The position numbers were made by a program, and so were the translations under genes. Shown in pieces: positions 34,968-53,270 of a DNA stretch of 64,000 bases (its first letter is position 1; each line of letters begins with the position of its first letter). The notes beneath the pieces were generated by a model. That model was not told the origin of the DNA. It did no database searches and worked only from the letters and a program-made list of their open reading frames with translations. Source of the DNA: Oscillospiraceae bacterium (GTDB lineage: Bacteria; Bacillota; Clostridia; Oscillospirales; Ruminococcaceae); contig JAGAUA010000011.1 of assembly GCA_017847885.1 (NCBI GenBank), positions 16,770 through 80,769 on the forward strand, read 5' to 3'.

Positions 34968-34995
34968 AAGGACGGATATTATCCGTCCTTTTTTG
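34968..34995 (+). terminator. Rho-independent terminator of mgtE
   Basis: AAGGACGGATA-t-TATCCGTCCTT followed by TTTT. Confidence 0.8.
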
Positions 34996-35090
34996 CTGCA
35001 AAGAAGCCTCGCTTTTCCCTTGACACAAAGCGCAATTTCAGCTATAATTCATATAAAGGCAGTAAGCGGACTATCGGAAAGGAGAACGAC

Positions 35091-35864
35091 ATGAAAGCTG
35101 TTATTTTAGCCGGCGGTTTCGGCACGAGGATAAGCGAGGAATCCCACCTGAGACCTAAGCCGATGATCGAGATCGGAGAAATGCCTATACTCTGGCATAT
35201 TATGAAGGAGTACTCCCATTACGGCATCAAAGAATTTATAATCTGCGCAGGCTACAAGCAGCATATTATCAAAGAGTGGTTTGCCAATTATTTTCTGCAT
35301 ACTTCCGATATAACCTTTGATTTTTCCGACAACAACATGATCGTCCACAATAAGCACGCAGAAAACTGGAAGGTCACCATCGTTGACACGGGACTGAAAA
35401 CCCAAACGGGTGGACGTGTTAAAAGGATAAAGGAGCATATCGGCAATGAGTCATTCCTGCTTACATACGGCGACGCCGTGTCTGATATGAACATAGACGA
35501 GCTGATAGATTTTCATAAATCCCACGGCAAGATAGGCACTATATCGCTATATAATTTCGGTCAGAGCAAGGGCGTTGTAGAGGTAAAGGAAAACAAAATC
35601 ACCGCGTTCCGTGAAAAATCCGATTTGGACGGCGACCTTATCAACATCGGCTATATGGTGTTTGAGCCTGCGATATTCGATTATATTTCAGGCGATGAAA
35701 TGCCGCTGGAAACAGAGCCTTTTGCCTCTCTTATAAAGGAAGACCAGCTCTGCGGTTATGTTCACAGAGGCTTCTGGCAGTGTATGGATACGCTAAGAGA
35801 AAAGCAGCGGCTTGAGCAATACTGGGAGTCGGGAGACGCTCCTTGGAAGGTGTGGAACGACTGA
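35091..35864 (+). CDS. rfbF: Glucose-1-phosphate cytidylyltransferase
   Basis: MKAVILAGGFGTRISEESHLRPKPMIEIG, 257 aa, typical of RfbF/DdhA. Confidence 0.92.
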   Translation: MKAVILAGGFGTRISEESHLRPKPMIEIGEMPILWHIMKEYSHYGIKEFIICAGYKQHIIKEWFANYFLHTSDITFDFSDNNMIVHNKHAENWKVTIVDTGLKTQTGGRVKRIKEHIGNESFLLTYGDAVSDMNIDELIDFHKSHGKIGTISLYNFGQSKGVVEVKENKITAFREKSDLDGDLINIGYMVFEPAIFDYISGDEMPLETEPFASLIKEDQLCGYVHRGFWQCMDTLREKQRLEQYWESGDAPWKVWND

Positions 35865-36922
35865 TGGACTTATCGTTTTATAAAGGAAAAAGGGTGCTTG
35901 TCACAGGGCACACAGGCTTTAAGGGCACATGGCTCACAAGAATTCTTGTTAACGCAGGCGCGGAAGTTGCAGGCTATTCAAGATGCTCCGAAAAAGAGCC
36001 TTCTCTGTTTGAAGCGGCAGACGTAAAGGACAGTATCGTACATATCAAAGGCGATGTAAGAGATTTGGAGCATCTGAAAAAGGTGTTTGCCGAATTTCAG
36101 CCTGAGATAGTGCTGCACCTTGCCGCGCAGCCCATAGTGAGGGACAGCTATAAGGACCCGGTGTATACATACGAGACCAACGTTATGGGAACGGTCAATA
36201 TCATGGAGTGCGTAAGGCTTAATCCGTGCGTGAAGTCGGTGCTGAACGTTACTACCGACAAAGTTTACCTGAACAACGAATGGTGCTGGGGGTATCGGGA
36301 GGACGAGCCTCTCGACGGCTTTGACCCGTACTCGAATTCAAAGTCCTGCTCGGAGCTTGTTACCCACAGCTATAAAAACAGCTTTTTTGCAGACGGCAGA
36401 GCCGCGGTATCTACAGCAAGAGCAGGAAATGTTATCGGCGGCGGCGACTTTGCCAATGACAGAATTATCCCCGATTGTGTAAGAGCAATGGCTGACGGAA
36501 GGGTCATCGGCGTAAGAAATCCGTACAGCACCCGTCCCTATCAGCACGTTCTGGAGCCGCTTTTCGTGTACCTTACCATTGCGGCAAAGCAGTATGAATG
36601 CCCCAAATATCAAGGCTATTACAACGTAGGTCCGGACGATTGTGATTGTGTTACAACAGGAGAGCTTGTCAGCCTTTTCTGCAAATGCTGGGGAGAAAAC
36701 GCAAAATGGGAAAATCAAGCGGAAGCCGGCGCTCCCCATGAAGCAAGCTTCCTCAAGCTGGATTGCAGCAAGCTTAAAAGCACCTTTGGCTGGAAGCCCC
36801 GCTGGCACATAGAAAAGTGTATGGATATGGTCTGCCGCTTCAGCAGGATATGGCTTGCAGGCGGAGATATCCCTGAGGAAATGGATAAGGAAATAAGGGA
36901 ATTCGCGGGAAATCAGCCCTGA
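35864..36922 (+). CDS. rfbG: CDP-glucose 4,6-dehydratase
   Basis: KRVLVTGHTGFKGTWL and YSNSK (YxxxK). The ATG overlaps the rfbF stop (TGATG). Confidence 0.92.
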   Translation: MDLSFYKGKRVLVTGHTGFKGTWLTRILVNAGAEVAGYSRCSEKEPSLFEAADVKDSIVHIKGDVRDLEHLKKVFAEFQPEIVLHLAAQPIVRDSYKDPVYTYETNVMGTVNIMECVRLNPCVKSVLNVTTDKVYLNNEWCWGYREDEPLDGFDPYSNSKSCSELVTHSYKNSFFADGRAAVSTARAGNVIGGGDFANDRIIPDCVRAMADGRVIGVRNPYSTRPYQHVLEPLFVYLTIAAKQYECPKYQGYYNVGPDDCDCVTTGELVSLFCKCWGENAKWENQAEAGAPHEASFLKLDCSKLKSTFGWKPRWHIEKCMDMVCRFSRIWLAGGDIPEEMDKEIREFAGNQP

Positions 36923-36961
36923 TTTTCGTAAGAGATTTTACAGAAAAAACGACAAGAATTA

Positions 36962-36990
36962 TTGACAAAATCGGTAATTTCTGTTATGAT
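36962..36990 (+). promoter_or_regulatory. SigA-type internal promoter
   Basis: TTGACA-17 nt-TATGAT with TGt extended -10. Confidence 0.5.
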
Positions 36991-37049
36991 TATAAGTGAA
37001 AATTTTAAACGTCAGCATATATTATTTCTTGCCGTTTGGAGGGTATTAA

Positions 37050-38711
37050 ATGGATCATTTATTCACAAAAGAACAGGACGAGATCACGCTTCAGATATTA
37101 ACTTCTCTTCAAACCGCTTATGAAGCAACCGATATTTTGCTTAATGAAATAAAAAACAATAAAGACTGGTCGCAGTTTGACACGCTGACATCAACGCTAA
37201 ACCAGCTTATTACAGTCATAATGGACGCTTCCGAGCCGTATCACAAGAAATATGACTTTATAACGCTTCCCATTACCTGCCGCTGTATGCTGCATACCTT
37301 GAGTAAAATAATTTCGGCAAGAAGCTCCGATCTGAAAAAATGCTTCGGCAAGCTTGAATTTGAGCTTGTTCCTGCCATTGAAGAGGCTTATCAGCAGTTC
37401 TATTTCTGGACCTGCGTTTATTCCTATCCCGAACGCGAAAAGGAATATTACAATCAAGAAATTTATGAGCTTTCTTCCAACAAATACACCAACGCTTCCG
37501 TAAAAAGCGGTCAATTCAAATATGACCTTTCAATTATGGTTCTGGCGTATAATAAGCTGGAATATACCAAAAAGTGTATAGAACACCTGCTTCCCAATAT
37601 CCCCAAGAATTTGAACTGCGAGCTTATCTTATTCGATAACGGCTCAACCGACGGAACTGCCGAATATTTTGAAAGCTTAAATCCGACAAAACTGTTTCAG
37701 CCTAAAATCAATTGGGGATACGGATTGGCTGTAAACCGAATTATTGAATCGAAATATCTGCTGTATGTGTCAAATGACGTTTTGGTAATGCCCGGCGTTA
37801 TTGAAAATATGCTGGAATGTATAAAATCAGATGACAAAATAGCGCGTATCGTTCCCGCAACAACAAACGTAAGCAACAGACAGGCTGTTATCGAAGGCTT
37901 TAAAAGCTTTGACGACGTTTATGCTTATGCCCGTAAAAACAATGTTCCCGACCCTTTCAGACGGGAAGAAAGAGTCCGCTTGTGTGACCCTATCTCGCTT
38001 ATGGATATGTCGGTGTACGCTTCGGAAAAAGGCATATGCAACTTCGGCTATTATCGGGATAAAGTAATGTCATTCCCCGATGATATGGCGTCATTGATGC
38101 TTAGAAGAAGAGGCTACAAGCAGATACTTCAAAAGGACGCTTTCTGTTATCATTTTGGCTCTATAACGGTAAAAAATGAAATTGACCCTGATTTTTATAC
38201 CCGCGGAAGAAAAATATTCAAAAAAGAATTCGGCGTTGACCCCTGGGGAACAGGCTTTTGCTATGACTCCCCGTTTGAAGAACGGGTCGTAAAGGACGAG
38301 CAGGGTCACGTTGAAGTCCTCGGAATAAACTGCGGTTTCGGCAGCAACTCTCTAAAAATCAAGGAACAGCTCAAAGAGTATTGCAATAATCTTGACTGCA
38401 CACTTTCAAACGTAACCGACGATCCAAGCTTTATTTCCGATTTGAAGGGCATAAGCGATAATGCGCAGCTTGTCACGGATATTAAGTCATTCGAAGAATT
38501 TCTGGATACGCATATGTACAACTATGTGGTTTGGCAGACGCCGTTTATTATTCGAAATGACGCTTCGGCAGTATTCGACCTGCTTCTTTCCCATATCTGC
38601 CCCGGCGGAATTTTATTCGTAAAATCAAATAATTCTTTTTTGGAATATGCAAATAAAAATAACCTTTCTGTATTATCCTTGCCGGAAGAATGGATAAAGC
38701 TGGAGGTTTAA
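37050..38711 (+). CDS. Multidomain family-2 glycosyltransferase (unknown N-terminal ~160 aa, GT2 core, unknown C-terminal ~150 aa)
   Basis: GT2 core LSIMVLAYNKLEYTKKCIEHL...LILFDNGSTDGT. The flanking regions were not recognised. Confidence 0.75.
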   Translation: MDHLFTKEQDEITLQILTSLQTAYEATDILLNEIKNNKDWSQFDTLTSTLNQLITVIMDASEPYHKKYDFITLPITCRCMLHTLSKIISARSSDLKKCFGKLEFELVPAIEEAYQQFYFWTCVYSYPEREKEYYNQEIYELSSNKYTNASVKSGQFKYDLSIMVLAYNKLEYTKKCIEHLLPNIPKNLNCELILFDNGSTDGTAEYFESLNPTKLFQPKINWGYGLAVNRIIESKYLLYVSNDVLVMPGVIENMLECIKSDDKIARIVPATTNVSNRQAVIEGFKSFDDVYAYARKNNVPDPFRREERVRLCDPISLMDMSVYASEKGICNFGYYRDKVMSFPDDMASLMLRRRGYKQILQKDAFCYHFGSITVKNEIDPDFYTRGRKIFKKEFGVDPWGTGFCYDSPFEERVVKDEQGHVEVLGINCGFGSNSLKIKEQLKEYCNNLDCTLSNVTDDPSFISDLKGISDNAQLVTDIKSFEEFLDTHMYNYVVWQTPFIIRNDASAVFDLLLSHICPGGILFVKSNNSFLEYANKNNLSVLSLPEEWIKLEV

Positions 38712-38893
38712 AGCGCTGCGGTATGAAACGGGTCACCGGTATGCAGCATCAAAAAGAACGGAAAAACAAATACATTGCTGCGTATCCGCCCAATGCTCCT
38801 TGTTCCCAATAAGCAAAAATGCCACGGCGCTTACCGTGGCATTAGTTGTATATTCATCTGCCGCAGAAAAATCAATTTTTGGAGGACCGATAA

Positions 38894-40237
38894 ATGAGTA
38901 ATTGGACAAGCGAAGCCGAAGCACGTCAACAGATAAAAGCTATGGTAGCAGAATATTACCATGATTTTATGGAAAAAAAAGACGCATTTAAACCCGGCGA
39001 CCGCATAAGCTATGCTTCACGGGTATTCGATGAAAAGGAAATGTGCAGCCTGACAGATGCCGTTTTGGATTTCTGGCTGACAACAGGCAGGTTTTCCGAC
39101 GAATTTGAACGCAATTTTGCCGAGTGGATAGGCGTGAAATATGCACATCTTGTCAACAGCGGCTCTTCCGCAAACCTTATTGCGTTTTCCGTTCTGACCG
39201 CTCCCGAGCTTGGCGAGCGGCAGATAAAGCGCGGCGATGAGGTCATCACCGTTGCCGGCGGCTTTCCCACTACCGTTACGCCGATACTTCAGTATGGCGC
39301 AATACCCGTATTTGTTGACGTGACTGTTCCACAGTACAACATTGATGTTACAAAGCTTGAAGCCGCTTTGAGCGATAAGACAAAGGCGGTCATGATAGCG
39401 CACACCTTGGGTAATCCCTTTGACCTGTCTGCGGTAAAGGCCTTCTGCGATAAGCATGGTTTATGGCTTGTGGAGGATAACTGCGACGCCCTCGGCACGG
39501 AGTACACCATTGACGGAGTAACCAAATTCACAGGCACATGGGGCGATATCGGAACAAGCAGCTTCTATCCGCCCCACCATATGACAATGGGAGAAGGCGG
39601 CTGCGTTTATACCAATGACCCGATGCTTCATCGCCTTATACTCTCCTACCGCGACTGGGGTCGGGACTGCATCTGCCCGTCGGGACGGGATAATTTTTGC
39701 GGACGCCGTTTTGACGGACAATACGGCGAGCTGCCCCGCGGATACGACCACAAATATGTTTACAGCCATTTCGGATATAACCTCAAAGTTACCGACCTGC
39801 AAGCCGCTGTTGGCGTGGAGCAGCTGAAAAAGTTCCCGTCCTTTATTGAGCGGCGCCGCCATAACTGGGACAGGCTGCGAAATGCGCTGAAATGTGTTCG
39901 GGATAAAATTATCTTGCCCGAGCCTGCGGAAAACAGCAGACCCTCATGGTTCGGCTTTCTCATTTCCGTGAAGCCCGAAACGGGTCTTGACAGAAATAAC
40001 GTTACCCGTTATATTGAGGAGCATAATATCCAAACAAGGCTTTTATTCAGCGGCAATCTTATCAAGCACCCCTGCTTTGACCATATCCGCGGCACCGACG
40101 CATACCGCGTGGTCGGAGAGCTTTCCAACACCGATTTCATCATGAATAACAGCTTTTGGGTGGGTGTGTATCCCGGCATGAGCGATGAGATGATAGATCA
40201 TATGGCAAAGATTATCATAGAAGCTGTGAATAAGTAA
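38894..40237 (+). CDS. rfbH: CDP-6-deoxy-D-xylo-4-hexulose 3-dehydrase (E1, RfbH/DdhC type; DegT fold)
   Basis: 447 aa DegT/DnrJ-like protein. It has SFYPPHHMTMGEGG, with His at the position of the usual PLP lysine. It is adjacent to rfbF and rfbG. Confidence 0.85.
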   Translation: MSNWTSEAEARQQIKAMVAEYYHDFMEKKDAFKPGDRISYASRVFDEKEMCSLTDAVLDFWLTTGRFSDEFERNFAEWIGVKYAHLVNSGSSANLIAFSVLTAPELGERQIKRGDEVITVAGGFPTTVTPILQYGAIPVFVDVTVPQYNIDVTKLEAALSDKTKAVMIAHTLGNPFDLSAVKAFCDKHGLWLVEDNCDALGTEYTIDGVTKFTGTWGDIGTSSFYPPHHMTMGEGGCVYTNDPMLHRLILSYRDWGRDCICPSGRDNFCGRRFDGQYGELPRGYDHKYVYSHFGYNLKVTDLQAAVGVEQLKKFPSFIERRRHNWDRLRNALKCVRDKIILPEPAENSRPSWFGFLISVKPETGLDRNNVTRYIEEHNIQTRLLFSGNLIKHPCFDHIRGTDAYRVVGELSNTDFIMNNSFWVGVYPGMSDEMIDHMAKIIIEAVNK

Positions 40238-40306
40238 ATAATATTATTTTTGCAGTAAAGGACAAAATGGGTGTTGGAAAACTTTTATTGATATACCAAT
40301 AAAAGT

Positions 40307-40335
40307 TTGCAAAAAACAGGGAAATATGTTATAAT
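40307..40335 (+). promoter_or_regulatory. SigA-type promoter immediately upstream of repeat copy 1
   Basis: TTGCAA-17 nt-TATAAT with TGt extended -10. The predicted TSS is near 40342. Confidence 0.6.
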
Positions 40336-40345
40336 AGAGGTATAA

Positions 40346-40484
40346 GTTTGAAAATAAATTTTCAAACCCGAATTTTGTTTTCCTTGCTGCTGCAAGGGAT
40401 TTGCTTAGCCGGCTTTGTCAGTTTCAAACCGCAAAACATCGGAAAGGAGTGCATTTTCCCTTTGGGGAAATGGTCATAAAAATG
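40346..40484 (+). repeat. Repeated ~137-nt leader, copy 1 (5' UTR of first FkbM gene)
   Basis: About 90 percent identical by eye to 46561-46696. The 3' 62 nt have only 3 differences. Confidence 0.9.
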
Positions 40485-41621
40485 ATTGACAATGAATTAT
40501 TAATGTTTTTGCAAACAGTTCCAAATGAAACAGACTTATTTGTAAAACAGCTTAAAGCCGAACAAGATAATAAGAAAATATATTTATATGGCTGCGGTAA
40601 TCACGTCAGATTTGTTGCTGATTATTTAAAATACCATGATATTAAGATAACGGCTATACTGGATACATTTAAAGAAGGCATTTTTTCCGGGATCCCTGTT
40701 ATTCGTTATTCCGATTTTCTTGCTGAAAAACCCGATCCGGAAAAATGTATAATTATTATTTCTGCTCCGGCAAAAGCAAAGGAAATTTCAGATAATCTAA
40801 AGAGATCCGGCAATTGGAACTTTTGGCTGTTTTCTTCAGTATTAGGCATATTTATGAGCGATCTTGACGAATACAGAAACTATCTTGCCCAAAACTGGGA
40901 TGAATTTATTAAATTTTCCAATTCATTGGAAGACGATTTGTCGCGAAAAACTCTTGAGTGTGTTCTAAAAGGCAAGGTCTCGGGAGATCCAAAATATTTT
41001 GCGGAATGTTATGCCCCGAATCAATATTATCCAAATGATATTATTAAATTTTCCGACAATGAAGTTATGGTAGATCTGGGAGCTTATGATGGAGATTCAC
41101 TGTCAGAATTCATTAAAGTTTGTCCCGAATATAGATCTGCTTATTGCTTTGAACCCCAGGAAGAATATTTCAATAAACTAAACACGATTGTCAAGAAACA
41201 GCAAAAATTAGGGAAAAATGTCCATGCAATAATGAAAGGAGCATGGGAGAAAAGCTGCAAACTCCAATTTAGGCAAAATACCGGAATAGGCGGAAGCTTT
41301 TCACAAGATCCTTGTGATGAAAATGCGGAAAATATATGCTTTCTTGATGTAGCATCTGTTGATGAAGAAGTTAAAGAGCCGATCACATATATGAAAATGG
41401 ATATTGAGGGCTCTGAGCTTGCTGCACTTCACGGTGCAAAACGACAGATTTCTGAGAATAAACCTAAGCTGGCAGTCTGTGTATACCACAAAACAGAGGA
41501 TTTTCTTGATATATGGAATTATTTGCGAAGCCTTGTTCCGGAATATAAATTTTATTTGCGTCACCATATGAAAACTGAAGTATCAGAAACAGTATTGTAT
41601 GCCATTACCGATATAAAATAA
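40482..41621 (+). CDS. FkbM-family methyltransferase with NeuD-like N-terminal Rossmann region (paralog 1)
   Basis: 379 aa, colinear with paralog 2. I chose the start by alignment with paralog 2 (MIDNELLMFLQTVPNE vs MLNNELLEFLKSVPNE). The C-terminal half is FkbM-like (VDLGAYDGDS...MDIEGSE). Confidence 0.8.
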   Translation: MIDNELLMFLQTVPNETDLFVKQLKAEQDNKKIYLYGCGNHVRFVADYLKYHDIKITAILDTFKEGIFSGIPVIRYSDFLAEKPDPEKCIIIISAPAKAKEISDNLKRSGNWNFWLFSSVLGIFMSDLDEYRNYLAQNWDEFIKFSNSLEDDLSRKTLECVLKGKVSGDPKYFAECYAPNQYYPNDIIKFSDNEVMVDLGAYDGDSLSEFIKVCPEYRSAYCFEPQEEYFNKLNTIVKKQQKLGKNVHAIMKGAWEKSCKLQFRQNTGIGGSFSQDPCDENAENICFLDVASVDEEVKEPITYMKMDIEGSELAALHGAKRQISENKPKLAVCVYHKTEDFLDIWNYLRSLVPEYKFYLRHHMKTEVSETVLYAITDIK

Positions 41622-41639
41622 AAGAAAAGAGGAATAAAA

Positions 41640-42779
41640 ATGTTAAATAATGAATTATTGGAATTTTTAAAATCAGTTCCAAATGAAACGAAATTATTTG
41701 TAGAAAAGCTTAAAGCTGAACAAGGAGATAAAAAAATATACTTATTCGGCTGCGGCAATCATGTCAGAGTGGTTGTTGACTTTCTAAGACGTCGGAATTT
41801 TGATATAACTGCGATTATAGACACCTTCAAAGAAGGAGAGCTTTCCGGAATCCCTGTTATTCGTTATTCCGATTTCCTCGCTGAAAAACCCGATCCGGAA
41901 AAATGTATAATTATTATTTCTGCTCCGTCAAAAGCAAAGGAAATTACAGATACTTTAAGGAAATCCAATGATTGGAACATTAAAACATTTACAGTTGGAT
42001 TGAACGCCTTTATTGATGATATTGATGAATACAGAAACTATCTCGCCCAAAACTGGAATGAGCTTATTGAATTTGCTGATTCATTGGAAGATGATTTTTC
42101 GCGAAAAACTCTTGAATGTGTTCTAAAAGGCAGGGTCTCGGGAGATCCAAAATACTTTGCGGAATGTTATGCTGCCAATCAATATTATCCAAATGATATT
42201 ATTAAATTTTCCGATAATGAAGTTATGGTGGATCTTGGAGCTTATGATGGAGATTCACTTTCGGAATTCATTAAAGTTTGTCCCGAATATAGATCTGCTT
42301 ATTGCTTTGAACCACAGGAAGAATATTTCAATAAATTAAACGCGATCGTCATGGAACAACAAAAATTAGGGAAAGGCACCCATGCAATAATGAAAGGAGC
42401 ATGGGAGAAAAGCTGCAAGCTGAAATTTATACAAAACATGGGAACCGGCGGAAGCTTTTTACAAGATTCTTGTGATGCAAATGCGGAAAATATATGCTTT
42501 CTTGATGTAGCAGCTGTTGATGAAGAAGTTAAAGAGCCGATCACATATATGAAAATGGATATTGAGGGCTCTGAGCTTGCTGCACTTCATGGTGCAAAAC
42601 ATCAGATTTCTGAGAACAAACCTAAGCTGGCAATTTCCGTATATCATAAAATTGAAGATTTTCTCGACATTTGGAATTATTTGCGCAGTCTTGTTCCTGA
42701 ATATAAGTTTTATCTGCGTCATCATGTGGAGTATGAGATGCCGGATACGGTTTTGTACGCTGTTGCTGATACAAAATAA
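41640..42779 (+). CDS. FkbM-family methyltransferase (paralog 2, tandem duplicate)
   Basis: About 80 percent amino-acid identity to paralog 1 by eye, with long identical nucleotide runs. Confidence 0.85.
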   Translation: MLNNELLEFLKSVPNETKLFVEKLKAEQGDKKIYLFGCGNHVRVVVDFLRRRNFDITAIIDTFKEGELSGIPVIRYSDFLAEKPDPEKCIIIISAPSKAKEITDTLRKSNDWNIKTFTVGLNAFIDDIDEYRNYLAQNWNELIEFADSLEDDFSRKTLECVLKGRVSGDPKYFAECYAANQYYPNDIIKFSDNEVMVDLGAYDGDSLSEFIKVCPEYRSAYCFEPQEEYFNKLNAIVMEQQKLGKGTHAIMKGAWEKSCKLKFIQNMGTGGSFLQDSCDANAENICFLDVAAVDEEVKEPITYMKMDIEGSELAALHGAKHQISENKPKLAISVYHKIEDFLDIWNYLRSLVPEYKFYLRHHVEYEMPDTVLYAVADTK

Positions 42780-42863
42780 AAGAAAGTATTAAGAATATCA
42801 AAAAACGTATTTTACGGTATGTGAGGATTTGGTTAGTTCTTATGCTGATGCAATGACTGCAGA

Positions 42864-43544
42864 ATGGAGATTATTATGCAAATGAGTTTGACAAAGGACG
42901 ATCTGATCAGATATGTTGGGAGACAGTTGGAAATGTTCTTTCCGGATGGAATGAAATTTGATATAAGTCAGCATATCTCGTCATACAATCTTGCACTTGA
43001 ACGGCTGGAGTATTGTCTTGATTCAATTTGTGTCAAAGGATATCATGATGAAAAAGGCAATGTGACATTCTCCCATCTGCACGCTGATCAGTATGCAACG
43101 TTCATATGGTTCTTCAGCAATTCGGTCTGGAGGCTTGAGGAGAATGATTTTTTGAGCAGTAAGCTTCTTCAGCTGAACAGGTTATTGCATCAGATATTTA
43201 TTTCATACAAATGTGATATGCCGGATCACTTTTTTTTAGGGCATCCTATAGGAACTGTTTTAGGTAATGCAAAGTATGGGGATTTCTTAGCAGTTCTTCA
43301 AGGTGTTACCGTAAACACCAATAATGATTTGAAGATAGGAAAAGGTGTTTTCTTGGGAGCAAATTCGAAAATAATCGGAAGCAAACCAATCGGAGACAGA
43401 GCTTCTGTTGCAGTAGGTACACTACTATTTGAAACCTCTGTCCCGGACAATCATGTTGCAATGAATATAGATGGAAAAACCATTATACGCAAAAGGAAAA
43501 GGGAAAAATGTGTGGCTCAGAGATATTTTAACATAGATATTTAA
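42864..43544 (+). CDS. Left-handed beta-helix (hexapeptide) acyltransferase, serine-acetyltransferase-like
   Basis: GHPIGTVLGNAKYGDFLAVLQGVTVNTNNDLKIGKGVFLGANSKIIG. An alternative start at 42876 follows GGAGA. Confidence 0.75.
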   Translation: MEIIMQMSLTKDDLIRYVGRQLEMFFPDGMKFDISQHISSYNLALERLEYCLDSICVKGYHDEKGNVTFSHLHADQYATFIWFFSNSVWRLEENDFLSSKLLQLNRLLHQIFISYKCDMPDHFFLGHPIGTVLGNAKYGDFLAVLQGVTVNTNNDLKIGKGVFLGANSKIIGSKPIGDRASVAVGTLLFETSVPDNHVAMNIDGKTIIRKRKREKCVAQRYFNIDI

Positions 43545-43668
43545 GAGTCTCTTATATAAAGAAACTCAATTTTTAAGTTTTGCGAATTTGTTTATACTTT
43601 ACTGTGTTCACATAGATGTATTTGCACATCTGTTTTATGTGAACAAATTTCAAAAATAGGAGATAAAA

Positions 43669-45471
43669 ATGAAAATACGTGTTGCTGATTATATTGCTCA
43701 ATTTTTTGTTGAAAACGGAATAACTCAATTGTTTTCAGTTGTTGGCGGAGGAGCCATGCATCTGAATAATGCATTTGGTCTGGAAAAAAGGCTCAATGTT
43801 ACATACAACCATCACGAACAGGCATCGGCTATTGCAGCTGAAAGCTACAGCCGTGTGAACAACAAGGTTGCGGCAGTATGCGTTACAAGCGGACCGGGCG
43901 GTACAAATGCCCTTACAGGCGTTCTGTGTGCATGGCAGGATAATCTGCCGATGATCGTCGTTTCGGGACAGGTTCGTTATGATATAACTGTAGACAGCAC
44001 CGGTTTGAATCTGCGTCAGTTCGGTGAGCAGGAATATTATATCATACGCTCTGTTTCACCTATGACCAAGTATGCAGTAATGATAACAGATGCCAAAACA
44101 ATAAAGTATCATCTTTCAAAGGCTCTGCATCTTGCTACTACAGGTCGCCGCGGGCCGGTATGGATAGATGTGCCGCTGAATATACAGGGACAGGAAATTG
44201 ATACTGATGATTTGATAGAATATGTGCCTGAATCAGATTTCGGGGCATATAAAGCTGATATAGATAACATTGTACGTGAGATCTCATCTGCAAACCGTCC
44301 GGTTTTCATTGCCGGTTCCGGACTGCGCACCTCCGGCGCACTTGAAAAGTTCAGAGAACTTGCCGAAAAGCTGAATATACCTGTAGTTTGCCCAACAAGC
44401 ACTGTGGATTACTTTACCCCGTCAGAAAAAAAATACTTTGGAATGTTCGGTACATTCGGCGGCAGAACCGGTAATTTTATAGTTCAAAATGCTGACCTGC
44501 TTATTTCACTTGGTGCAAGATTGTCATTCAAACAGATAGGTTTTAATTTTGAACATTTTTCACCCCAATCACGCAGAATAGTAGTTGATGCAGATGCGGA
44601 AGAACTGAAAAAGCCTACGATCCGTATAGATATTCCAATATGCGCTGATGTTGCAGACGTTGTGTCAGCATTGCTGGAACGTGATATTGAAACAAAGACG
44701 GAAGAAAAAATGCAGTGGATGGAATATTGCAGATTTTTGAAAAACAGGTTTGCTACTTCTGCTGATACTGAAAGAAAATCAATAAGTGCATATCGTTTTT
44801 CAGAGGTGTTTTTTGAAAAGGCAGACGAAAATGCTGTCTGTGTATTGGGAAACAATACCGCGGCGGTTTCTCTTCTCCAGTGCGGAATAAAGAAAAAAGG
44901 ACAAAGAATGTACGGCAATGTAAACTGCGGTACAATGGGATACGACCTGCCGGCTGCTATCGGTGCGGCATTTGCTTCCGGAAAGACTGTGTTCTGTCTT
45001 ACCGGCGAGGGTACTTTGCAGATGAATTTGCAGGAACTTCAGACAGTGGTGCATAACAACCTGCCGGTTAAGATAGTTGTATTTAACAATAATTCCTATC
45101 AGGCAATAGTTGCAACTCAGAAGAACTTTTTCAACGGCGTTTTTTGCGGAGCCACAAATGATTCGGGAATAAGCTTCCCTTCATTCAAAAAGCTTGCTGA
45201 CTGCTATGATTTCCCGTTTAAATCTATAAGCAGGTCTGATGAGCTTGAAGCGGCAGTTGACTGGCTTTTAAATATTGAAGGACGTGCAATTTTAGAGCTT
45301 GTTCAGACTGAGCCTGACCCGATCATGCCTAAGCTTTCAAGTAAAAAGCTTAATGACGGCAGCATTGTGTCACCGCCTATTGATGACCTGTTCCCGTTTT
45401 TATCAGAAGAAGAATATGAAAAGTGCCGATACATAAATTTTGTTAAGGCAAATACAGAAACAGTATTATAA
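43669..45471 (+). CDS. Thiamine-diphosphate enzyme of the acetolactate-synthase superfamily (YerE-like candidate)
   Basis: N-terminal Pyr domain (HEQASAIAAESYSR, TSGPGGTNA) and C-terminal PP domain (GTMGYDLPAAIGAA...GEGTLQMNLQEL...NN). Confidence 0.85.
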   Translation: MKIRVADYIAQFFVENGITQLFSVVGGGAMHLNNAFGLEKRLNVTYNHHEQASAIAAESYSRVNNKVAAVCVTSGPGGTNALTGVLCAWQDNLPMIVVSGQVRYDITVDSTGLNLRQFGEQEYYIIRSVSPMTKYAVMITDAKTIKYHLSKALHLATTGRRGPVWIDVPLNIQGQEIDTDDLIEYVPESDFGAYKADIDNIVREISSANRPVFIAGSGLRTSGALEKFRELAEKLNIPVVCPTSTVDYFTPSEKKYFGMFGTFGGRTGNFIVQNADLLISLGARLSFKQIGFNFEHFSPQSRRIVVDADAEELKKPTIRIDIPICADVADVVSALLERDIETKTEEKMQWMEYCRFLKNRFATSADTERKSISAYRFSEVFFEKADENAVCVLGNNTAAVSLLQCGIKKKGQRMYGNVNCGTMGYDLPAAIGAAFASGKTVFCLTGEGTLQMNLQELQTVVHNNLPVKIVVFNNNSYQAIVATQKNFFNGVFCGATNDSGISFPSFKKLADCYDFPFKSISRSDELEAAVDWLLNIEGRAILELVQTEPDPIMPKLSSKKLNDGSIVSPPIDDLFPFLSEEEYEKCRYINFVKANTETVL

Positions 45472-45570
45472 ACGTAATCTGAATAAGATAAACCATATAG
45501 ATAATTAAAGAAATGATGTGTTGCAGTTTTGAAAACATTTAATATTGAAAATATTGCCGTAGGAAAAGAA

Positions 45571-46566
45571 ATGCTTGTTATCCCGGAAATCGGTATAAAT
45601 CACGGCGGCAGCCTTGAGGTCGCAAAGCTTATGATCGATGCTGCTGCAAATGCAGGTGCAAAAATAGTTAAGCACCAGACCCATATTGTAGATGACGAGA
45701 TGTCCCATGCGGCAAAACACGTAATTCCGGGTAATTCTAAAAAATCAATATATGATGTTATGGAGGAATGTGCGCTTTCAGAAAGCGAAGAGCTTGAGAT
45801 GATGCGCTATGCTGAAAGCAGGGGACTCGTATTCATGAGTACGCCCTTTTCAAGAGCAGCAGCGGACAGACTTGAAAAATTCGGAGTGTCCGCCTATAAA
45901 ATCGGTTCGGGGGAAATGAATAATTATCCGCTTATTGAGCATATTGCTGACTTCGGCAAACCGATGATCGTTTCCACCGGCATGAATGATATCAAATCAA
46001 TCGAAAAAACGGTAAATATACTTGAACGAAAAAATGTGAAATACGCACTTCTGCATACTACCAACATTTACCCCACAAAACCTGAACAGGTAAGACTTGG
46101 AGCAATGCTTGAAATGGCAGAAGCATTTCCCGATGTACCGTTCGGACTTTCAGACCATACGCTTAACAACAATTCATGTATAGCCGCTGCCGCTTTGGGT
46201 GCAACAATATTTGAACGTCATTTTACTGACAGCAAAAGCAGAGAAGGAAATGACATTGTATGCTCTATGGACGGGCATGAGCTTTCAGAGCTTATAAAAG
46301 CAGTCAATGAAGTTAAGCTGATGCGCGGCGGTGAAAAGAGTGCCCTTGCCGATGAACAGGTCACAATAGATTTTGCTTTCGCAACAGTAGTTTCGATCAA
46401 GCCGGTCGCAAAGGGCGACGTGTTCAGCAAAGAAAATATATGGGTAAAAAGACCGGGAACAGGCGAAATTCCGGCTGTGGATTATCCTAAAATACTTGGG
46501 AAAAAAGCAGCCTGCAATATTCCGTCAGATACACATATAACTCTTGATATGGTGGAAGAAGTTTGA
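45571..46566 (+). CDS. neuB: N-acetylneuraminate (nonulosonate) synthase family protein with C-terminal SAF domain
   Basis: [14 protein letters not shown]...KHQTH...KIGSGE. The ORF track offers an upstream TTG at 45529. The ATG at 45571 matches usual NeuB N-termini. Confidence 0.85.
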
Positions 46567-46696
46567 AAAAAATTCAAACCCGAGTTTTGTTTTCCTCGCT
46601 GCCGCAAGGAATTTTCTTAGCTGACTTTGTCAGTTTAAAACCGCAAAACATCGGAAAGGAGTGCATTTCCCCTTTGGGAAAATGGTCATAAAAATG
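46561..46696 (+). repeat. Repeated ~137-nt leader, copy 2 (between neuB-like and neuC-like genes)
   Basis: It starts on the neuB stop codon (GTTTGA) and ends at the neuC ATG. See copy 1. Confidence 0.9.
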
Positions 46697-47869
46697 AGTG
46701 ATTTGAAGATAGTTTTTCTAACAGGCACCCGTGCTGACTATGGCAAGCTGAAACCTCTTATGCTGGCATGTGAGAAAGATAAACATATTGATCTCAGTGT
46801 TTATGTTACAGGTATGCATTTATTTGAGAAATATGGAAGTACATATCACGATATCGTATCGGACGGATATTCAGATATACATATAGCCGAAGATTATGTC
46901 ATGACAGAAAATATGGATATAGATCTTGCAAATACTATTATTGGCTTTTCAAAATATATAAAGAAAATTAAACCTGATATGATAGTTGTCCACGGTGACA
47001 GGATAGAGCCTCTCGCAGGTGCTATTGTAGGGGTTCTGAATAATATCAAGGTCGTACATATAGAGGGCGGAGAAGTTACCGGTACTGCTGATGAATTTAT
47101 GAGGCACGCTATTTCAAAGCTCAGCAGTATGCATTTTGTATCCAATGATGAAGCAAAATTTCGCCTTATCCAGCTTGGTGAGCGTGAAAGTTCAATAGTT
47201 GTATTCGGTTCACCGGATATAGATATTATGCTTTCCGATAATCTGCCTGACTTGAATGATGTCAAGAAAATGTATAACATATACCATGATAAATACGCTA
47301 TTTTCAGTTATCACCCTGTTACAACTTCGGATAATCTGGAATTTGAGATCAATCAGGTTATTGAAGCTTTGAAAAAATCCGATAAAAATTACATTGTAAT
47401 TTATCCAAATAACGACACAGGTTCTGAAATAATATGCAAAGCCCTGGACAGCCTTGGTGATGACAGAAGATTTATATGCTATAAGTCGATCCCCTTTGAG
47501 AATTTCATAGTTTTGTTGAAAAACGCAGATTTTATTATCGGAAATTCAAGCGCAGGAGTTCGTGAGGCGTGTGTTTACGGAGTTCCTGCAATAGATATCG
47601 GTAAAAGACAAAACGGCAGATATAATTTGAAGATCATGAGAAATATTCAGTATGCAGATGAATGCTGTCCGGAAATTCTCAAGTGTATTTCCAATGTTGA
47701 CAATCATAGGTTTATATCATATTACTATGGCAATGGACATTCAGCAGAAATATTTTTGAAAACCATAAAAAGCAGAAATTTCAGAAAAATGGATATTCAA
47801 AAAACTTTTGTAGACTCATCAGAAACACATAAAGCAATAATAAATTATATTAATGAGGTGAGTTTTTGA
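46694..47869 (+). CDS. neuC: UDP-N-acetylglucosamine 2-epimerase (hydrolysing), NeuC type
   Basis: KIVFLTGTRADYGKLKPLM and HIEGGEVTGTADEFMRHAISKL. I chose the start at MSDLKIV. Confidence 0.85.
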   Translation: MSDLKIVFLTGTRADYGKLKPLMLACEKDKHIDLSVYVTGMHLFEKYGSTYHDIVSDGYSDIHIAEDYVMTENMDIDLANTIIGFSKYIKKIKPDMIVVHGDRIEPLAGAIVGVLNNIKVVHIEGGEVTGTADEFMRHAISKLSSMHFVSNDEAKFRLIQLGERESSIVVFGSPDIDIMLSDNLPDLNDVKKMYNIYHDKYAIFSYHPVTTSDNLEFEINQVIEALKKSDKNYIVIYPNNDTGSEIICKALDSLGDDRRFICYKSIPFENFIVLLKNADFIIGNSSAGVREACVYGVPAIDIGKRQNGRYNLKIMRNIQYADECCPEILKCISNVDNHRFISYYYGNGHSAEIFLKTIKSRNFRKMDIQKTFVDSSETHKAIINYINEVSF

Positions 47870-48714
47870 TGAATGTAATTGTTACCGGCGGTACCGGATT
47901 TCTTGGGAATGCGCTTGTATCTGAGCTGATACGCAGCGGAGATACGGTGACCGCACTCGTTCGCCCGAATTCGGTAAGACTAAGCAGAATTGAAAAAATT
48001 CCGGGAGTAAAAATTGTTGAAGCAAGGCTTGATGAAGATATCATACTACCCAAAGATAATTATGATGTTTTTTATCATCTGGCATGGGAAGGAGAAAGAG
48101 ACAATTACAACTCACAGTATAAAAATGTAAAAATGACTTTGAATTGTCTTAATGCTTCCGCAAAATATGGGTGCAAGAGGTTTATTTGTACAGGTTCACA
48201 GGCGGAATATGGTGAAACCGATCATGTCATAACCGAGGAAACACCTGTTGCTCCGACTACATCATACGGGGCTGCAAAAGCAGCTGCATATTATTTGTCA
48301 AAGGATCTGGCAAGGCATTATAATATTGAGCATATATGGGTAAGGGTATTCAGCGTTTATGGCGAAAATGACAATGCCAATACGTTGTATACACAGTTAT
48401 CCGAAGCATTGCACAACTCAAAAAAATACAGTCTTTCCACAGACGGAAAACATATGTGGAATTTTCTGCACGAAACAGATGCAGCACGCGCACTTCGTCT
48501 GCTTTATGCTCCTGATGTCAGTGAGGGAGTCTATAATTTGGCTTCAAAGTACAGCAGACCATTGTGTGAATATGTTGACCTGATGAGGCAAAGTATTGAC
48601 CCGTCTGCGGAAATATCATTCGGAAATCAAAAAAGTAAAATTAATCTAAACGCATCGACAGTCAAGCTTCGCAAAGCTGTTGGAGAGTTTGAAGAAAAGA
48701 CATTTCCAGTATAA
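47866..48714 (+). CDS. Short NAD(P)-dependent SDR epimerase/reductase (CDP-paratose/abequose-synthase-like or YerF-like)
   Basis: VTGGTGFLGNAL and YGAAK (YxxxK), 282 aa. It overlaps the neuC stop by 4 nt. Confidence 0.75.
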   Translation: MMNVIVTGGTGFLGNALVSELIRSGDTVTALVRPNSVRLSRIEKIPGVKIVEARLDEDIILPKDNYDVFYHLAWEGERDNYNSQYKNVKMTLNCLNASAKYGCKRFICTGSQAEYGETDHVITEETPVAPTTSYGAAKAAAYYLSKDLARHYNIEHIWVRVFSVYGENDNANTLYTQLSEALHNSKKYSLSTDGKHMWNFLHETDAARALRLLYAPDVSEGVYNLASKYSRPLCEYVDLMRQSIDPSAEISFGNQKSKINLNASTVKLRKAVGEFEEKTFPV

Positions 48715-48777
48715 AAAATATAAATATTTAAGCGATTAAGGAAGCACTGATTTAATCAGTACTTCCTTAACATATAC

Positions 48778-48823
48778 AAAAAATCTGCGCAAAATCTTTC
48801 ATATATAGATTTTGCGCATTTTT
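48778..48823. terminator. Bidirectional terminator between convergent genes
   Basis: A-run, then TGCGCAAAATC-11 nt-GATTTTGCGCA, then T-run. Confidence 0.65.
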
Positions 48824-48865
48824 ATATATACTTTGAGCGTAAGTCAGGAAAGCACTGATTGAATG

Positions 48866-50950
48866 TTATTTACGGTTATGCAGTTTATATTTCAAAATTC
48901 CTATTTCGGGATCAGCCGGACAAATCTTTTCAAGCTCAAGCAGCGTGCTTTCCGCAGTGGAAATATCCCCCGCGTCGATCATGCTGCGAATATTTTTCTT
49001 TACCGCAGCAGCCATTTCCGCAAGCTCTGAACGGACGCTTTTCTTCTGCACAGCCTCACTTTCGATAACCTTGCGGTACTCCGAAACAAACGGTGCAAAA
49101 TCGGGGCAAACCTTTATCAGCCTGCGCATTTCGCTGATACAGGTCTGATAATCCTTTCTTTCCCGTGCTTCGGTTATGCCGTGAACGATAATTCCCGCAC
49201 GAATATCCCCCGGGATATTTTCCTCATTGGGGAATTCGCTCTGCCATCTTGCAGCGATCTTACCGAACATTTCAAAAAGCTTTGTAATATCCTTACCAGA
49301 ATTAAGCGCTTCCACCATTGCCCAGCCGTATAAAGACGCGGCGTTCACAAGCGCGTCCGACGAAAGCATACAGATGTCATACTCATCAAGCAGGCAGGCA
49401 TACTCCGAAAAATCAGCGTATAATTCATGCACGAAGCTGCCGGCTTTAAAGTCGTCCGCCGTTAAAAAGCAGGATATATCCATGCTGCATTTTAACATCA
49501 TGCAGAGTATATCTGTATTGCCGAATGCTCCGTATTTTTTCGTAAAACTCTCGGCCTGCTCATATTGAAGAACATTGTCAATGAAGTATCCGCGATAAAT
49601 TTCAACTGCATCGTCAACGCAGGGAACATACTCCGAAAATTCCGACATGACGCTTAACAGCTCTTCGGGCTTGTCCGAAGAAAACATTTTGCCGCGAAGA
49701 ACTTGGAAAAACAGCTTTCTGTTGTTATCGTCAAGAGTGCTTACAAGCTTCTTTATGCTTTTCCAGCCGATATGCTCCATGATCTCGGCTCTGTCGCGGA
49801 AATGTACAAGCATATAATCCTTGTCGTCAAGATACTTTTCTATAGGGAATGCCTTCAAATATTCCGCGGCGGTGTTATATTTCTGCGTCATCACGCAAGA
49901 TTTAAAAAACATAAAATAAATATTTTTTAAATTTCTGTCACCTACTTTTACCGCAGAATAAAGCAGGTCATCAGTATTAAGCTTTCCGCTTTTGTAGGAT
50001 TTGTACACCTTGAAAAACTGTAGAAAATCATAAATTGCCTTATTAAACTGCTCAGTACGGAAATATGCTTCTCCGCGCATTGCATACATATTAACATCAT
50101 TTGCAAGTACCTGCGTATGGGACGGATTATCGCTTCCAAAATAATTATTGCAGGTCTCGATAACTCCAGGATAATCATTATAGCATGAAATTAAAAGGCT
50201 TGCCTTATTATTGTAATACTGAGTTATGGCAATAATGCTATGGTCAAGGTTATCCAAACCCATGTTTATGTATTTAAGTGCTTTTTCATGGTTATTAATT
50301 ATATTATAGCAGTCTGAAATTTCTCTGTAAGCGTTGAAATCAACGTCTTGATTTTCAAGGCTCTTAAACAGCATTTCAAGATTTCTTTTGCTTTTTACAT
50401 ACGCTTGTTCGGTCACTTCGCCGTTATTGCTATAAAAATATCCGTAATGATCTGCAACAGTACTAAATTTTTTAACAGGACTATGTACCGGACATAACGC
50501 CTCATGAATTGCATTTACAAAACAAACAGCAGAGTATCTATTGGTAAGCCGAAGCGCATTTGAATCTGTATATCTGCTTAAATCGACTTCATCAAAATAA
50601 GAGCGCACTATATAAGAGGCACTTCCGTATGACTTATACTCTCCCGAATTAAAAAAGCTTATTATCTCATCGCAGGACTGAAAAACTTCATCGGCGTCAA
50701 GAAACATATACCATTCTCCGACGGATTTTTCCATAGTAAAATTACGTGCAGCCGAAAAGTCGTCTATCCATTCAAAGTAATAAACCTTGTCGGTAAATTT
50801 CTTTGCTATCTCAACGGTATTATCCGTTGAACCCGTATCGGCAATAATAAGCTCGCTGTCCACCTTTTCAAGAATAGGCTTTAATGCGGTAAGGCACTTT
50901 TCAAGATACTTTTCCTCATTTTTAACTATCATTCCGATTGACAAAAGCAT
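48866..50950 (-). CDS. GT2 glycosyltransferase fused to a long TPR-like helical domain (candidate flagellin glycosyltransferase)
   Basis: LSIGMIVKNEEKYLEKCL...ADTGSTDNT...DADE. I chose the start at 50950, preceded by GGGAGGA with a 7-nt spacer. It lies directly downstream of a flagellin gene. Confidence 0.8.
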   Translation of the reverse strand: MLLSIGMIVKNEEKYLEKCLTALKPILEKVDSELIIADTGSTDNTVEIAKKFTDKVYYFEWIDDFSAARNFTMEKSVGEWYMFLDADEVFQSCDEIISFFNSGEYKSYGSASYIVRSYFDEVDLSRYTDSNALRLTNRYSAVCFVNAIHEALCPVHSPVKKFSTVADHYGYFYSNNGEVTEQAYVKSKRNLEMLFKSLENQDVDFNAYREISDCYNIINNHEKALKYINMGLDNLDHSIIAITQYYNNKASLLISCYNDYPGVIETCNNYFGSDNPSHTQVLANDVNMYAMRGEAYFRTEQFNKAIYDFLQFFKVYKSYKSGKLNTDDLLYSAVKVGDRNLKNIYFMFFKSCVMTQKYNTAAEYLKAFPIEKYLDDKDYMLVHFRDRAEIMEHIGWKSIKKLVSTLDDNNRKLFFQVLRGKMFSSDKPEELLSVMSEFSEYVPCVDDAVEIYRGYFIDNVLQYEQAESFTKKYGAFGNTDILCMMLKCSMDISCFLTADDFKAGSFVHELYADFSEYACLLDEYDICMLSSDALVNAASLYGWAMVEALNSGKDITKLFEMFGKIAARWQSEFPNEENIPGDIRAGIIVHGITEARERKDYQTCISEMRRLIKVCPDFAPFVSEYRKVIESEAVQKKSVRSELAEMAAAVKKNIRSMIDAGDISTAESTLLELEKICPADPEIGILKYKLHNRK

Positions 50951-51035: not shown

Positions 51036-51067
51036 AGAGAAAAGCGGCTGTCCTTGCGGACAGCCGC
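51036..51067 (-). terminator. Rho-independent terminator of flagellin A
   Basis: Minus strand GCGGCTGTCC-gcaa-GGACAGCCGC followed by UUUUCUCUU. Confidence 0.8.
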
Positions 51068-51106
51068 CCTGAAACTCGCTTTAAGCAGATTTTAAACCGT
51101 GATCTC

Positions 51107-52924: not shown

Positions 52925-52950
52925 AAATGTTACCTCCTGTAAATTTGGTT

Positions 52951-53265: not shown

Positions 53266-53270
53266 AAAAC

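Follow-up and report, generated by a model that had tools for sequence, protein, structure and literature searches.

Why does a flagellin locus carry the genes for a cytidine diphosphate (CDP)-activated dideoxyhexose side by side with the sialic acid enzymes NeuB and NeuC? This question is raised by a 16-kb block of 12 genes (positions 35091-50950; defined by the list of open reading frames (ORFs) and by Pfam and NCBIfam scans) in a stretch of 64 kb from contig JAGAUA010000011.1 of an Oscillospiraceae bacterium, the whole of which is called the window here. An earlier note, made from the sequence alone, had interpreted the block as an island for flagellin glycosylation with a dideoxyhexose and a separate nonulosonate branch. 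Our analysis points to another answer, namely that the core of the island makes one hybrid long-branched sugar and not two separate sugars: N-acetylneuraminic acid (Neu5Ac), supplied by NeuC and NeuB, would be the donor that a thiamine diphosphate (ThDP)-dependent enzyme joins to CDP-4-keto-3,6-dideoxyglucose. We consider this reading evenly poised; the YerE-type chemistry at its centre and the link to flagellin stand on firmer ground, as set out below.

A YerE-like carboligase and its probable acceptor

By sequence comparison, the key gene of the island is the ThDP gene (43669..45471, + strand), which encodes a predicted YerE-like ThDP-dependent carboligase with all three TPP domains. The earlier note had listed this enzyme and had given it no role. 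Its best matches in the PDB were JanthE (8rph; 1.8e-109, 370 bits) and PpYerE (5ahk; 2.7e-68, 234 bits), and the alignment with JanthE covered the full length, C-terminal tail included. E. coli acetolactate synthase (ALS) I ranked behind both (213 bits). Within NCBIfam, ALS models were the nearest, with 315 bits against a cut-off of 538 bits, and we rejected a metabolic ALS as the identity of the protein, as it falls far below the ALS cut-offs and lies nearer to the YerE-like structures. The catalytic Glu50 within the HHEQ motif is invariant. The ThDP-binding motif at residues 446-448 is GEG, where GDG would be canonical; since 36 of the 120 closest homologues share GEG (81 have GDG), it is probably functional. 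The variant resembles the unusual CDG motif reported for JanthE (PMC12247030).

Among decarboxylases, YerE-like lyases are the only subclass known to transfer acyl anions derived from 2-keto acids onto isolated ketones, and their physiological acceptor is CDP-4-keto-3,6-dideoxy-D-glucose (PMC12247030, PMC9306805), which is exactly the product of RfbF, RfbG, and RfbH. YerE itself uses pyruvate as donor, and the largest donor tested for YerE-like enzymes is C8 (PMC9306805). In a unifying scheme for long-branched sugars, a cluster-encoded aldolase makes a 3-deoxy-4-hydroxy-2-keto acid as the donor (PMC9306805). YerE-type branched sugars are known from lipopolysaccharide (LPS) and lipooligosaccharide (LOS) only (PMC12247030).

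Three genes for making the acceptor are present in the island. They comprise rfbF (35091..35864, + strand), encoding a glucose-1-phosphate cytidylyltransferase with CDP-glucose as product (TIGR02623, 371 bits vs. a cut-off of 300), rfbG (35843..36922, +), encoding a CDP-glucose 4,6-dehydratase (TIGR02622, 427 vs. 278 bits; with a 352-aa call in locus L085), and rfbH (38894..40237, +), encoding an E1-type CDP-6-deoxy-4-keto-hexose 3-dehydrase (NF011936, 710 vs. 423 bits). RfbH has His at the position of the pyridoxal phosphate-binding lysine (PPHHMTMGEGG) and the cysteines C197...C259-x-C261-x7-C269. We take the exchange of Lys for His together with the cysteine motif to be the signature of an E1 dehydrase and not of an aminotransferase; judged by these motifs, RfbH would be an E1 dehydrase rather than an aminotransferase, as expected. 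YerE-type C-branching of a CDP-dideoxyhexose is likely to take place in this island.

Conservation of the ThDP-NeuB-NeuC-SDR cassette

The ThDP gene is followed by three genes on the + strand. NeuB (45529..46566) is of the N-acetylneuraminate synthase type (PF03102 plus SAF domain), with 381 bits for TIGR03569 just below the cut-off of 399.65, and it matches the Neu5Ac synthase NeuB of N. meningitidis at 4e-122. NeuC (46661..47869) is of the hydrolysing UDP-GlcNAc 2-epimerase type (TIGR03568, 385 vs. 236 bits), and its PDB matches were hydrolysing 2-epimerases. RfbF, RfbG, RfbH, and NeuC thus exceed the NCBIfam equivalog cut-offs, and NeuB lies just below. The third gene (47866..48714), the start of which overlaps the NeuC stop, encodes a 282-aa extended short-chain dehydrogenase/reductase (SDR; Pfam Epimerase).

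We compared 80 genome loci encoding ThDP homologues, with genes called by a greedy ORF heuristic. Co-occurrence was tabulated for 81 entries, including a fragment of this island itself (L001), and partners and context were scored in 76 loci. A lookup of the exact ThDP protein of the window gave nothing but a 4-kb fragment. At least 12 independent loci, spread over several phyla, have their genes in the order ThDP-NeuB-NeuC-SDR, frequently with stops and starts that overlap; this order is kept in Oscillospiraceae, Ruminococcus, Paenibacillus, Peptostreptococcaceae, Acetatifactor, C. botulinum, and P. polymyxa. The NeuB and NeuC proteins of the cassette loci are 64-73% and 51-62% identical, respectively, to those of the window. 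The combination of CDP-dideoxyhexose genes with NeuB/NeuC, regarded as unusual by the earlier note, is hence no one-off; it belongs to a conserved cassette, a description of which we did not find in the searchable literature. The literature searched likewise yielded no papers linking YerE-like enzymes with NeuB, sialic acid, or flagella, and nothing relevant on flagellin glycans together with ThDP enzymes or on C. botulinum glycan masses. The SDR gene is the last of the conserved cassette, and in 49 of the 76 loci an SDR homologue is encoded no more than 3 kb away from the ThDP gene; the enzyme is a candidate YerF-like side-chain ketoreductase, as far as its sequence tells. A Ruminococcus metagenome-assembled genome (MAG) shows a variation of the arrangement, with two tandem pairs of a ThDP gene and the glycosyltransferase gene GT2a (see below) ahead of a single NeuB-NeuC-SDR set (L003, 4736-11791).

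A sialylation pathway would call for further genes. We searched for CMP-sialate synthetases (NeuA) with a hidden Markov model (HMM) built from five solved enzymes, among which the N. meningitidis sequence is 100% identical to 1EYR. Neither the six-frame translation of the 64-kb window nor any strict-cassette locus gave a match; the only matches were in L064 (4e-45) and L013 (1.5e-35), which serve as positive controls. Pfam revealed no Maf or sialyltransferase-type transferase among the island proteins, the only transferases being two members of glycosyltransferase family 2 (GT2). As a CMP-nonulosonate synthetase and a Maf transferase are both lacking, a nonulosonate pathway cannot be completed from the island. 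The separate nonulosonate branch proposed earlier finds no support here and is probably wrong, and NeuB and NeuC probably belong with the ThDP enzyme and not with a sialylation pathway.

Partner genes and phylogeny of the ThDP enzymes

Nearby homologues of RfbH, RfbF, and RfbG were present in 60, 56, and 51 of the 81 entries, respectively. Regarding the possible donor, the ThDP gene has an HMGL-like or HpcH/citrate-lyase aldolase gene beside it but no NeuB in 30 loci, NeuB but no aldolase in 16, and neither partner in 29. Both occur in one locus only, which also has NeuA. NeuB and aldolase are therefore nearly mutually exclusive near the ThDP gene (Fisher's exact test, p = 6.6e-4). No HMGL or HpcH aldolase is encoded in this island, where NeuB and NeuC would occupy the niche of the pyruvate aldolase.

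In a simple neighbor-joining tree without support values, NeuB-linked, aldolase-linked, and partnerless ThDP enzymes formed three separate clades. Four active-site positions have been defined by docking for JanthE (PMC12188165). These read E/F/K/F in the strict-cassette loci, with E and F shared by all of the NeuB clade, whereas the remaining clades have D/(V,I,M)/R/Y. The genomic context differed as well: flagellar or GmaR-like genes were nearby in 6 of the 16 NeuB-clade loci vs. 2 of the 60 others (p = 7.9e-4), whereas envelope-glycosylation genes of the GT2/GtrA/GT87 type accompanied 37 of the 60 others and 2 of the 16 NeuB-clade loci.

A proposed route to a hybrid branched sugar

The observations can be arranged into a pathway, in which the substrates, the order of the steps, and the division of labour between the two GT2 enzymes are our inference. 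RfbF, RfbG, and the E1 enzyme RfbH would convert glucose-1-phosphate to CDP-4-keto-3,6-dideoxy-D-glucose, with a general ferredoxin or flavodoxin system presumably acting as the reductase partner of E1. In parallel, NeuC would turn UDP-GlcNAc into ManNAc, and NeuB would condense ManNAc with phosphoenolpyruvate (PEP) to free Neu5Ac, a 2-keto-3-deoxy-4-hydroxy acid. The chemistry of NeuB is of the aldol type, like that of the aldolases, but irreversible, and the product has the same 2-keto-3-deoxy-4-hydroxy head group. The YerE-like enzyme could then decarboxylate Neu5Ac and couple the C8 unit that remains to the CDP sugar at its C4 ketone. That the NeuB product is the donor of the ThDP enzyme has, in our estimate, equal chances of being right and wrong. 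The SDR would reduce the new side-chain ketone in the manner of YerF, and two FkbM enzymes and an acetyltransferase would O-methylate and O-acetylate the product. The CDP on the hexose would serve as the activating group; because it is already in place, no CMP-sialate synthetase would be needed. Finally, GT2a might transfer the sugar, and the GmaR-like enzyme GT2-TPR might recognise flagellin and form the protein-sugar link on Ser or Thr.

For the free sugar, this route predicts C16H31NO11 (413.190 Da), corresponding to a residue of 395.179 Da, to which each methyl group adds 14.016 and each acetyl group 42.011; the CDP intermediates are predicted at [M-H]- 795.174 and 797.190. In its fullest form, the proposal says that a sialic acid synthase module without CMP-synthetase has been recruited as a keto-acid supplier, and that its product, a CDP-activated, 14-carbon, N-acetylated, C4-branched 3,6-dideoxyhexose, is placed on flagellins of Oscillospiraceae, Lachnospiraceae, Clostridium botulinum, Paenibacillus, Caulobacteraceae, and other lineages. 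For this wider claim, we see slightly less than an even chance. Such a branched higher sugar would be previously undescribed.

Several points weigh against the hybrid sugar. The whole pathway is deduced from comparisons of genes and structures, the ThDP motif is the GEG variant, and we saw no E3 reductase gene (RfbI, DdhD) among those of the island. General ferredoxin/flavodoxin reductases can serve E1-type dehydrases such as SpnQ. Neu5Ac, with nine carbons and mostly in the pyranose form, is larger than any donor tested with YerE-like enzymes. A neuA gene could lie beyond the 64-kb window or beyond the 10-kb flanks of the loci. In L010, the cassette stands without any rfb gene within 10 kb. 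Moreover, L013, a locus of a Bacillota MAG that branches deeply in the NeuB clade and has a NeuB of 31% identity, carries between the ThDP gene and NeuB an ORF (11798-13405) of 535 aa that includes a NeuA-like domain (122 bits); it is the one NeuB-clade locus that may CMP-activate a nonulosonate. Lastly, co-inheritance of two sugars of one glycan would also give gene linkage.

The last point leads to the alternative that survives best, which we nevertheless regard as unlikely. It assumes two independent sugars in one flagellin glycan, namely a CDP-dideoxyhexose, either plain or with a pyruvate-derived C2 branch as in yersiniose, and Neu5Ac, activated by a CMP-synthetase encoded elsewhere and moved by an unrecognised transferase. 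The closeness of NeuB and NeuC to authentic sialic acid enzymes fits this alternative, as does pyruvate as YerE's own donor; linkage is common among genes whose sugars end up in the same glycan, and neuA does stand beside such clusters in L013 and L064. However, NeuA is absent from the window and from at least 12 strict-cassette loci, among them complete islands bounded by flagellin and fliD, and the only transferases are the two GT2 enzymes, with no member of a Maf or sialyltransferase family. Furthermore, co-inheritance predicts neither the mutual exclusion of NeuB and aldolase nor a ThDP tree that is split by partner.

Transferase GT2a and tailoring enzymes

Between rfbG and rfbH, GT2a (37050..38711, + strand) encodes a soluble three-domain protein of 553 aa with a Pfam GT2 match. 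Its AlphaFold2 model (pLDDT 91) consists of a helical bundle (7-153), a GT-A domain (158-410), and an alpha/beta domain (421-552), and the Foldseek matches were GT-A transferases only. The structure prediction and Foldseek also ruled out a cytidylyltransferase domain hidden in GT2a. Orthologues accompany the cassette in L003 (two copies), L004, L006, L082, L083, and L087. GT2a is a candidate transferase for the CDP-activated branched sugar, as suggested by the model and its company.

FkbM1 (40401..41621, +) and FkbM2 (41640..42779, +) each combine a PglD_N nucleotide-sugar-binding-type domain with an FkbM methyltransferase domain. They share 80% amino acid identity and form a tandem duplication with a period of 1158 nt. 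The following gene (42864..43544, +) encodes a hexapeptide-repeat protein resembling CysE/EpsC/WcaB, with NCBIfam scores below the cut-offs and a sub-threshold Hexapep match. By its sequence it is probably an O-acetyltransferase, and among the compared loci it is confined to this lineage. A related island, the ThDP enzyme of which is 88% identical, has different tailoring genes.

Other cassette loci also vary in their tailoring genes (L002, 5562-7478 and 17917-20823; L003, 14824-17815; L010, 16199-18312; L087, 8403-11859). The sets include a B12-radical SAM protein, three tandem radical-SAM/SPASM proteins, an iron-dependent alcohol dehydrogenase, a 2-hydroxyacyl-CoA-dehydratase-like pair with its activator ATPase, and an aldo-keto reductase fused to a 4Fe-4S domain. 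This variation hints at deoxygenated or C-methylated versions of the sugar.

The link to flagellin

The last gene of the island, GT2-TPR (48866..50950, - strand), is convergent to the others and encodes a flagellin-type glycosyltransferase with a GT-A domain (1-170) and helical repeats (181-693). The island end at 50950 agrees with a 694-aa protein in the NCBI record. By sequence, GT2-TPR was closest to Listeria GmaR (2e-28), and the peptide S-glycosyltransferases SunS and ThuS were also matched. GmaR is a flagellin O-GlcNAc transferase. Tetratricopeptide repeat (TPR) matches in Pfam remained sub-threshold for the window protein and were present in its orthologues, and the question was therefore settled by structure: in the AlphaFold model (pLDDT 90.3), some 500 residues of helical repeats come after a GT-A domain, and Foldseek returned SunS/ThuS and the TPR superhelix of OGT.

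GT2-TPR adjoins the gene of flagellin A (flaA; 51107..52924, -; 605 aa, Flagellin_N and Flagellin_C), which is divergent from that of flagellin B (flaB; 53322..55229, +; 635 aa). Both flagellins are the presumed acceptors. Their middle parts, described as long and Ser/Thr-rich in the earlier note, proved moderately enriched only, and mostly in Thr (20-21% vs. 13% in the conserved ends; flaA middle 21%).

The strongest evidence for the flagellin link comes from comparing gene content with other flagellar loci. In P. polymyxa (GCA_030812515.1), the order is flagellin, GT2-TPR, RfbF, RfbG, ThDP, NeuB, NeuC, SDR, FkbM, a 229-aa protein, GT2a, RfbH, FlaG, and FliD, and C. botulinum B2 433 has an equivalent gene set downstream of fliD and the flagellin genes. 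In addition, flagellins and/or GmaR-like enzymes flank the cassette in Paenibacillus sp. TAB 01, in Acetatifactor, and in one MAG each of Caulobacteraceae, Desulfatiglandales, and another Oscillospiraceae bacterium. Among the ORFs of at least 80 aa between 33 and 58 kb, we found no Wzx, Wzy, Wzz, initiating transferase, or ABC exporter, as the earlier note had stated, and a hydropathy scan with MgtE as positive control gave no convincing membrane segment in any of the 12 island proteins. The adjacency to flagellin, the GmaR-like GT2-TPR, the all-soluble proteins, and the same set in other flagellar loci lead us to consider it very likely that the 16-kb block is a flagellin-glycosylation island, which decorates a protein and does not build a polymer. 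This part of the first interpretation is thus well supported.

It seems very improbable that the flagellin adjacency is accidental and that the genes serve an S-layer protein, a cell-wall polysaccharide, a capsule built by distant genes, or some other glycoconjugate. The known YerE-type sugars do occur in LPS and LOS (PMC12247030), the majority of the more distant YerE-like loci have the envelope-type genes mentioned above, and in this genome the island sits between mgtE and flaA, outside any full flagellar operon. Against this stand the lack of a membrane protein, flippase, polymerase, or priming transferase, the similarity of GT2-TPR to GmaR and SunS/ThuS above all, the recurrence of the gene set in flagellar loci of two cultured species, and the rarity of Gtr-type genes in the NeuB clade.

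Most improbable of all is an ordinary paratose/abequose-type 3,6-dideoxyhexose island with the SDR as the C4-reductase RfbS/RfbJ and the ThDP protein as a metabolic ALS, since the RfbS-like length of the SDR, the ALS models as nearest NCBIfam matches, and the paratose predicted for clostridial flagellar islands with RfbF/G/H/S are outweighed by the low ALS score and greater nearness to JanthE and PpYerE, by the lack of an ALS small subunit or ilv-type neighbour in Pfam scans of the island ORFs, by the co-occurrence of the ThDP gene with RfbF/G/H in most loci examined, and by the branched-sugar signature of 'acetolactate synthase' plus 'citrate lyase family protein' in a C. butyricum island listed in the supplement of the very survey that predicts paratose (PMC13317340). 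For some clostridia, this 2026 survey predicted flagellin glycans with a plain 3,6-dideoxyhexose ('paratose'). In its supplementary file 1, the 'glucose plus paratose' island of C. butyricum DSM 10702 (FF104_14355-14395) further contains genes annotated as acetolactate synthase large subunit, citrate lyase family protein, 3-dehydroquinate synthase, and ketoacyl reductase, the first two of which were given no role (PMC13317340). The same partner families surround the aldolase-type YerE-like genes in our loci, and the C. butyricum island probably makes a branched sugar as well.

Boundaries, base composition, and predicted regulatory sites

Pfam and NCBIfam bore out the gene content listed in the earlier note, including the convergent GT2-TPR gene by flagellin A. 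At the protein level, the window matches NCBI records of an Oscillospiraceae MAG with 100% identity. Upstream of the island lie mgtE (33594-34946) and the dcw cluster (mraZ, mraW, a PASTA-domain penicillin-binding protein, and a fused MurE-MurF). A terminator-like hairpin after mgtE (34968..34990, +; 10-bp stem followed by a T run) forms the left island boundary. A lookup of the exact MgtE protein for an island-free strain returned the same arrangement only, and it showed no insertion boundary. In the dcw cluster, a single 960-aa ORF (24836-27718, -) contains two complete Mur-ligase modules, an apparent MurE-MurF fusion. Directly 3' of flaB, a 614-aa predicted lipoprotein (55396-57240) has a signal peptide ending in LLSGC and no Pfam or NCBIfam match.

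The GC content is 0.406 in the island vs. 0.491 outside, and its distribution is patchy. The genes rfbF, rfbG, and rfbH are genome-like (0.46-0.50), whereas all genes from FkbM1 to GT2-TPR range from 0.35 to 0.43. The AT-richness from about 40.3 kb onward that had been noticed before is thereby borne out for these genes, but GT2a is already low (0.406). The mosaic make-up of the island, claimed in the earlier note, is supported by this patchiness and by the different tailoring genes in the island with the 88% identical ThDP enzyme.

Promoter-like sites were not enriched (57 found vs. 48.6 +/- 5.9 expected from shuffles), and we rejected promoter enrichment as evidence of modules. Of the internal consensus promoters said to divide the island, what remains are three strong matches, all located in intergenic gaps and of value as weak annotation only: a sigma-70-type TTGACA-17-TATAAT before rfbF (35020..35048, +; 12/12, a consensus match only), a site before GT2a (36962..36990, +; 11/12, with TG extension), and one before FkbM1 (40306..40335, +; 10/12, TG). 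The hairpin scan revealed a bidirectional hairpin between GT2a and rfbH (38818..38843), and a strong terminator-like hairpin after flaA (51041..51070, -; 13 pairs, 8 GC) separates flaA from GT2-TPR. A sigma-28-type match TAAA-N16-GCCGATA faces flaA (53153..53178, -; 3 matches in the window vs. 0.46 expected). No sigma-28 promoter was found upstream of the island genes, and the single one precedes flaA.

The divergent flagellin genes have mirrored leaders (52908-53338) with a 27-nt element (52969-52995 and 53241-53267) matched at 96%, and the ribosome-binding sites and start regions of the flaA and flaB leaders are 100% identical. Such symmetry points to duplication of a regulatory element in the 5'-UTR, which might be under CsrA/FliW-type control.

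Implications of the predicted sugar

If the hybrid sugar is real, the cassette would represent a new route to very long branched sugars, with NeuB as an irreversible substitute for the aldolase of the YerE scheme, and it would explain widespread NeuB genes that lack a neuA partner. It would assign a chemistry to the flagellin island of gut Clostridia, C. botulinum, and plant-associated Paenibacillus, and provide exact masses to seek in cultivable organisms. The published 'paratose' predictions for clostridial flagellar islands would need a second look, and biocatalysis could gain a clade of ThDP carboligases that perhaps accept large polyhydroxylated donors. Flagellin glycans affect filament assembly, phage susceptibility, and recognition by TLR5 and antibodies, which makes them relevant to abundant gut commensals.

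Comparison with known systems

The closest chemical counterpart is the YerE/YerF system of yersiniose A, together with the long-branch scheme for erwiniose, caryophyllose, and gastriose (ErwE, MMAR_2332, MyGE). Shared features are RfbF/G/H (= DdhA/B/C) for CDP-4-keto-3,6-dideoxyglucose, a YerE-like carboligase, methyltransferases, and a GT2; the adjacent SDR is a candidate for the NAD(P)H reductase, and the donor would likewise be a 3-deoxy-4-hydroxy-2-keto acid from a dedicated C-C bond-forming enzyme of the same cluster. Unlike in that scheme, the place of the pyruvate aldolase would be taken by the PEP-dependent NeuB together with NeuC. The side chain predicted here, C8 and N-acetylated, is longer than any described, and the target would be flagellin and not LPS/LOS. 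Moreover, the E3 (DdhD) gene is missing, and the ThDP motif is GEG.

The Salmonella/Yersinia rfb O-antigen pathway shares RfbF/G/H above the equivalog cut-offs and the E1 signature of RfbH. In contrast, the island has no RfbI (E3), no assignable RfbS/J/E, and no Wzx, Wzy, or WbaP, and the ThDP enzyme probably diverts the rfb product at the 4-keto stage. Maf-dependent nonulosonic acid glycosylation (Campylobacter, Helicobacter, Aeromonas, and the legionaminic acid islands of C. botulinum) likewise places a NeuB-family synthase and a NeuC-type epimerase by flagellin genes, but it relies on a CMP-nonulosonate synthetase and Maf, both absent here.

With the Firmicute GT2-TPR islands (Listeria GmaR; Clostridium and Paenibacillus; clostridial RfbF/G/H/S, PMC13317340), the island shares its position beside flagellin, an enzyme of GT-A plus TPR, soluble sugar-nucleotide enzymes, the lack of export machinery, and variable tailoring genes. 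The difference lies in the sugar chemistry: GmaR adds GlcNAc only, and the published clostridial predictions end at the plain 3,6-dideoxyhexose, with no role given to the ThDP enzyme and its aldolase or NeuB partner. Flagellin glycosylation islands of the GT2-TPR type are therefore already known; what appears to be new, as judged from the gene comparisons, is the recurrent and hitherto undescribed core of a NeuB-fed, YerE-type cassette.

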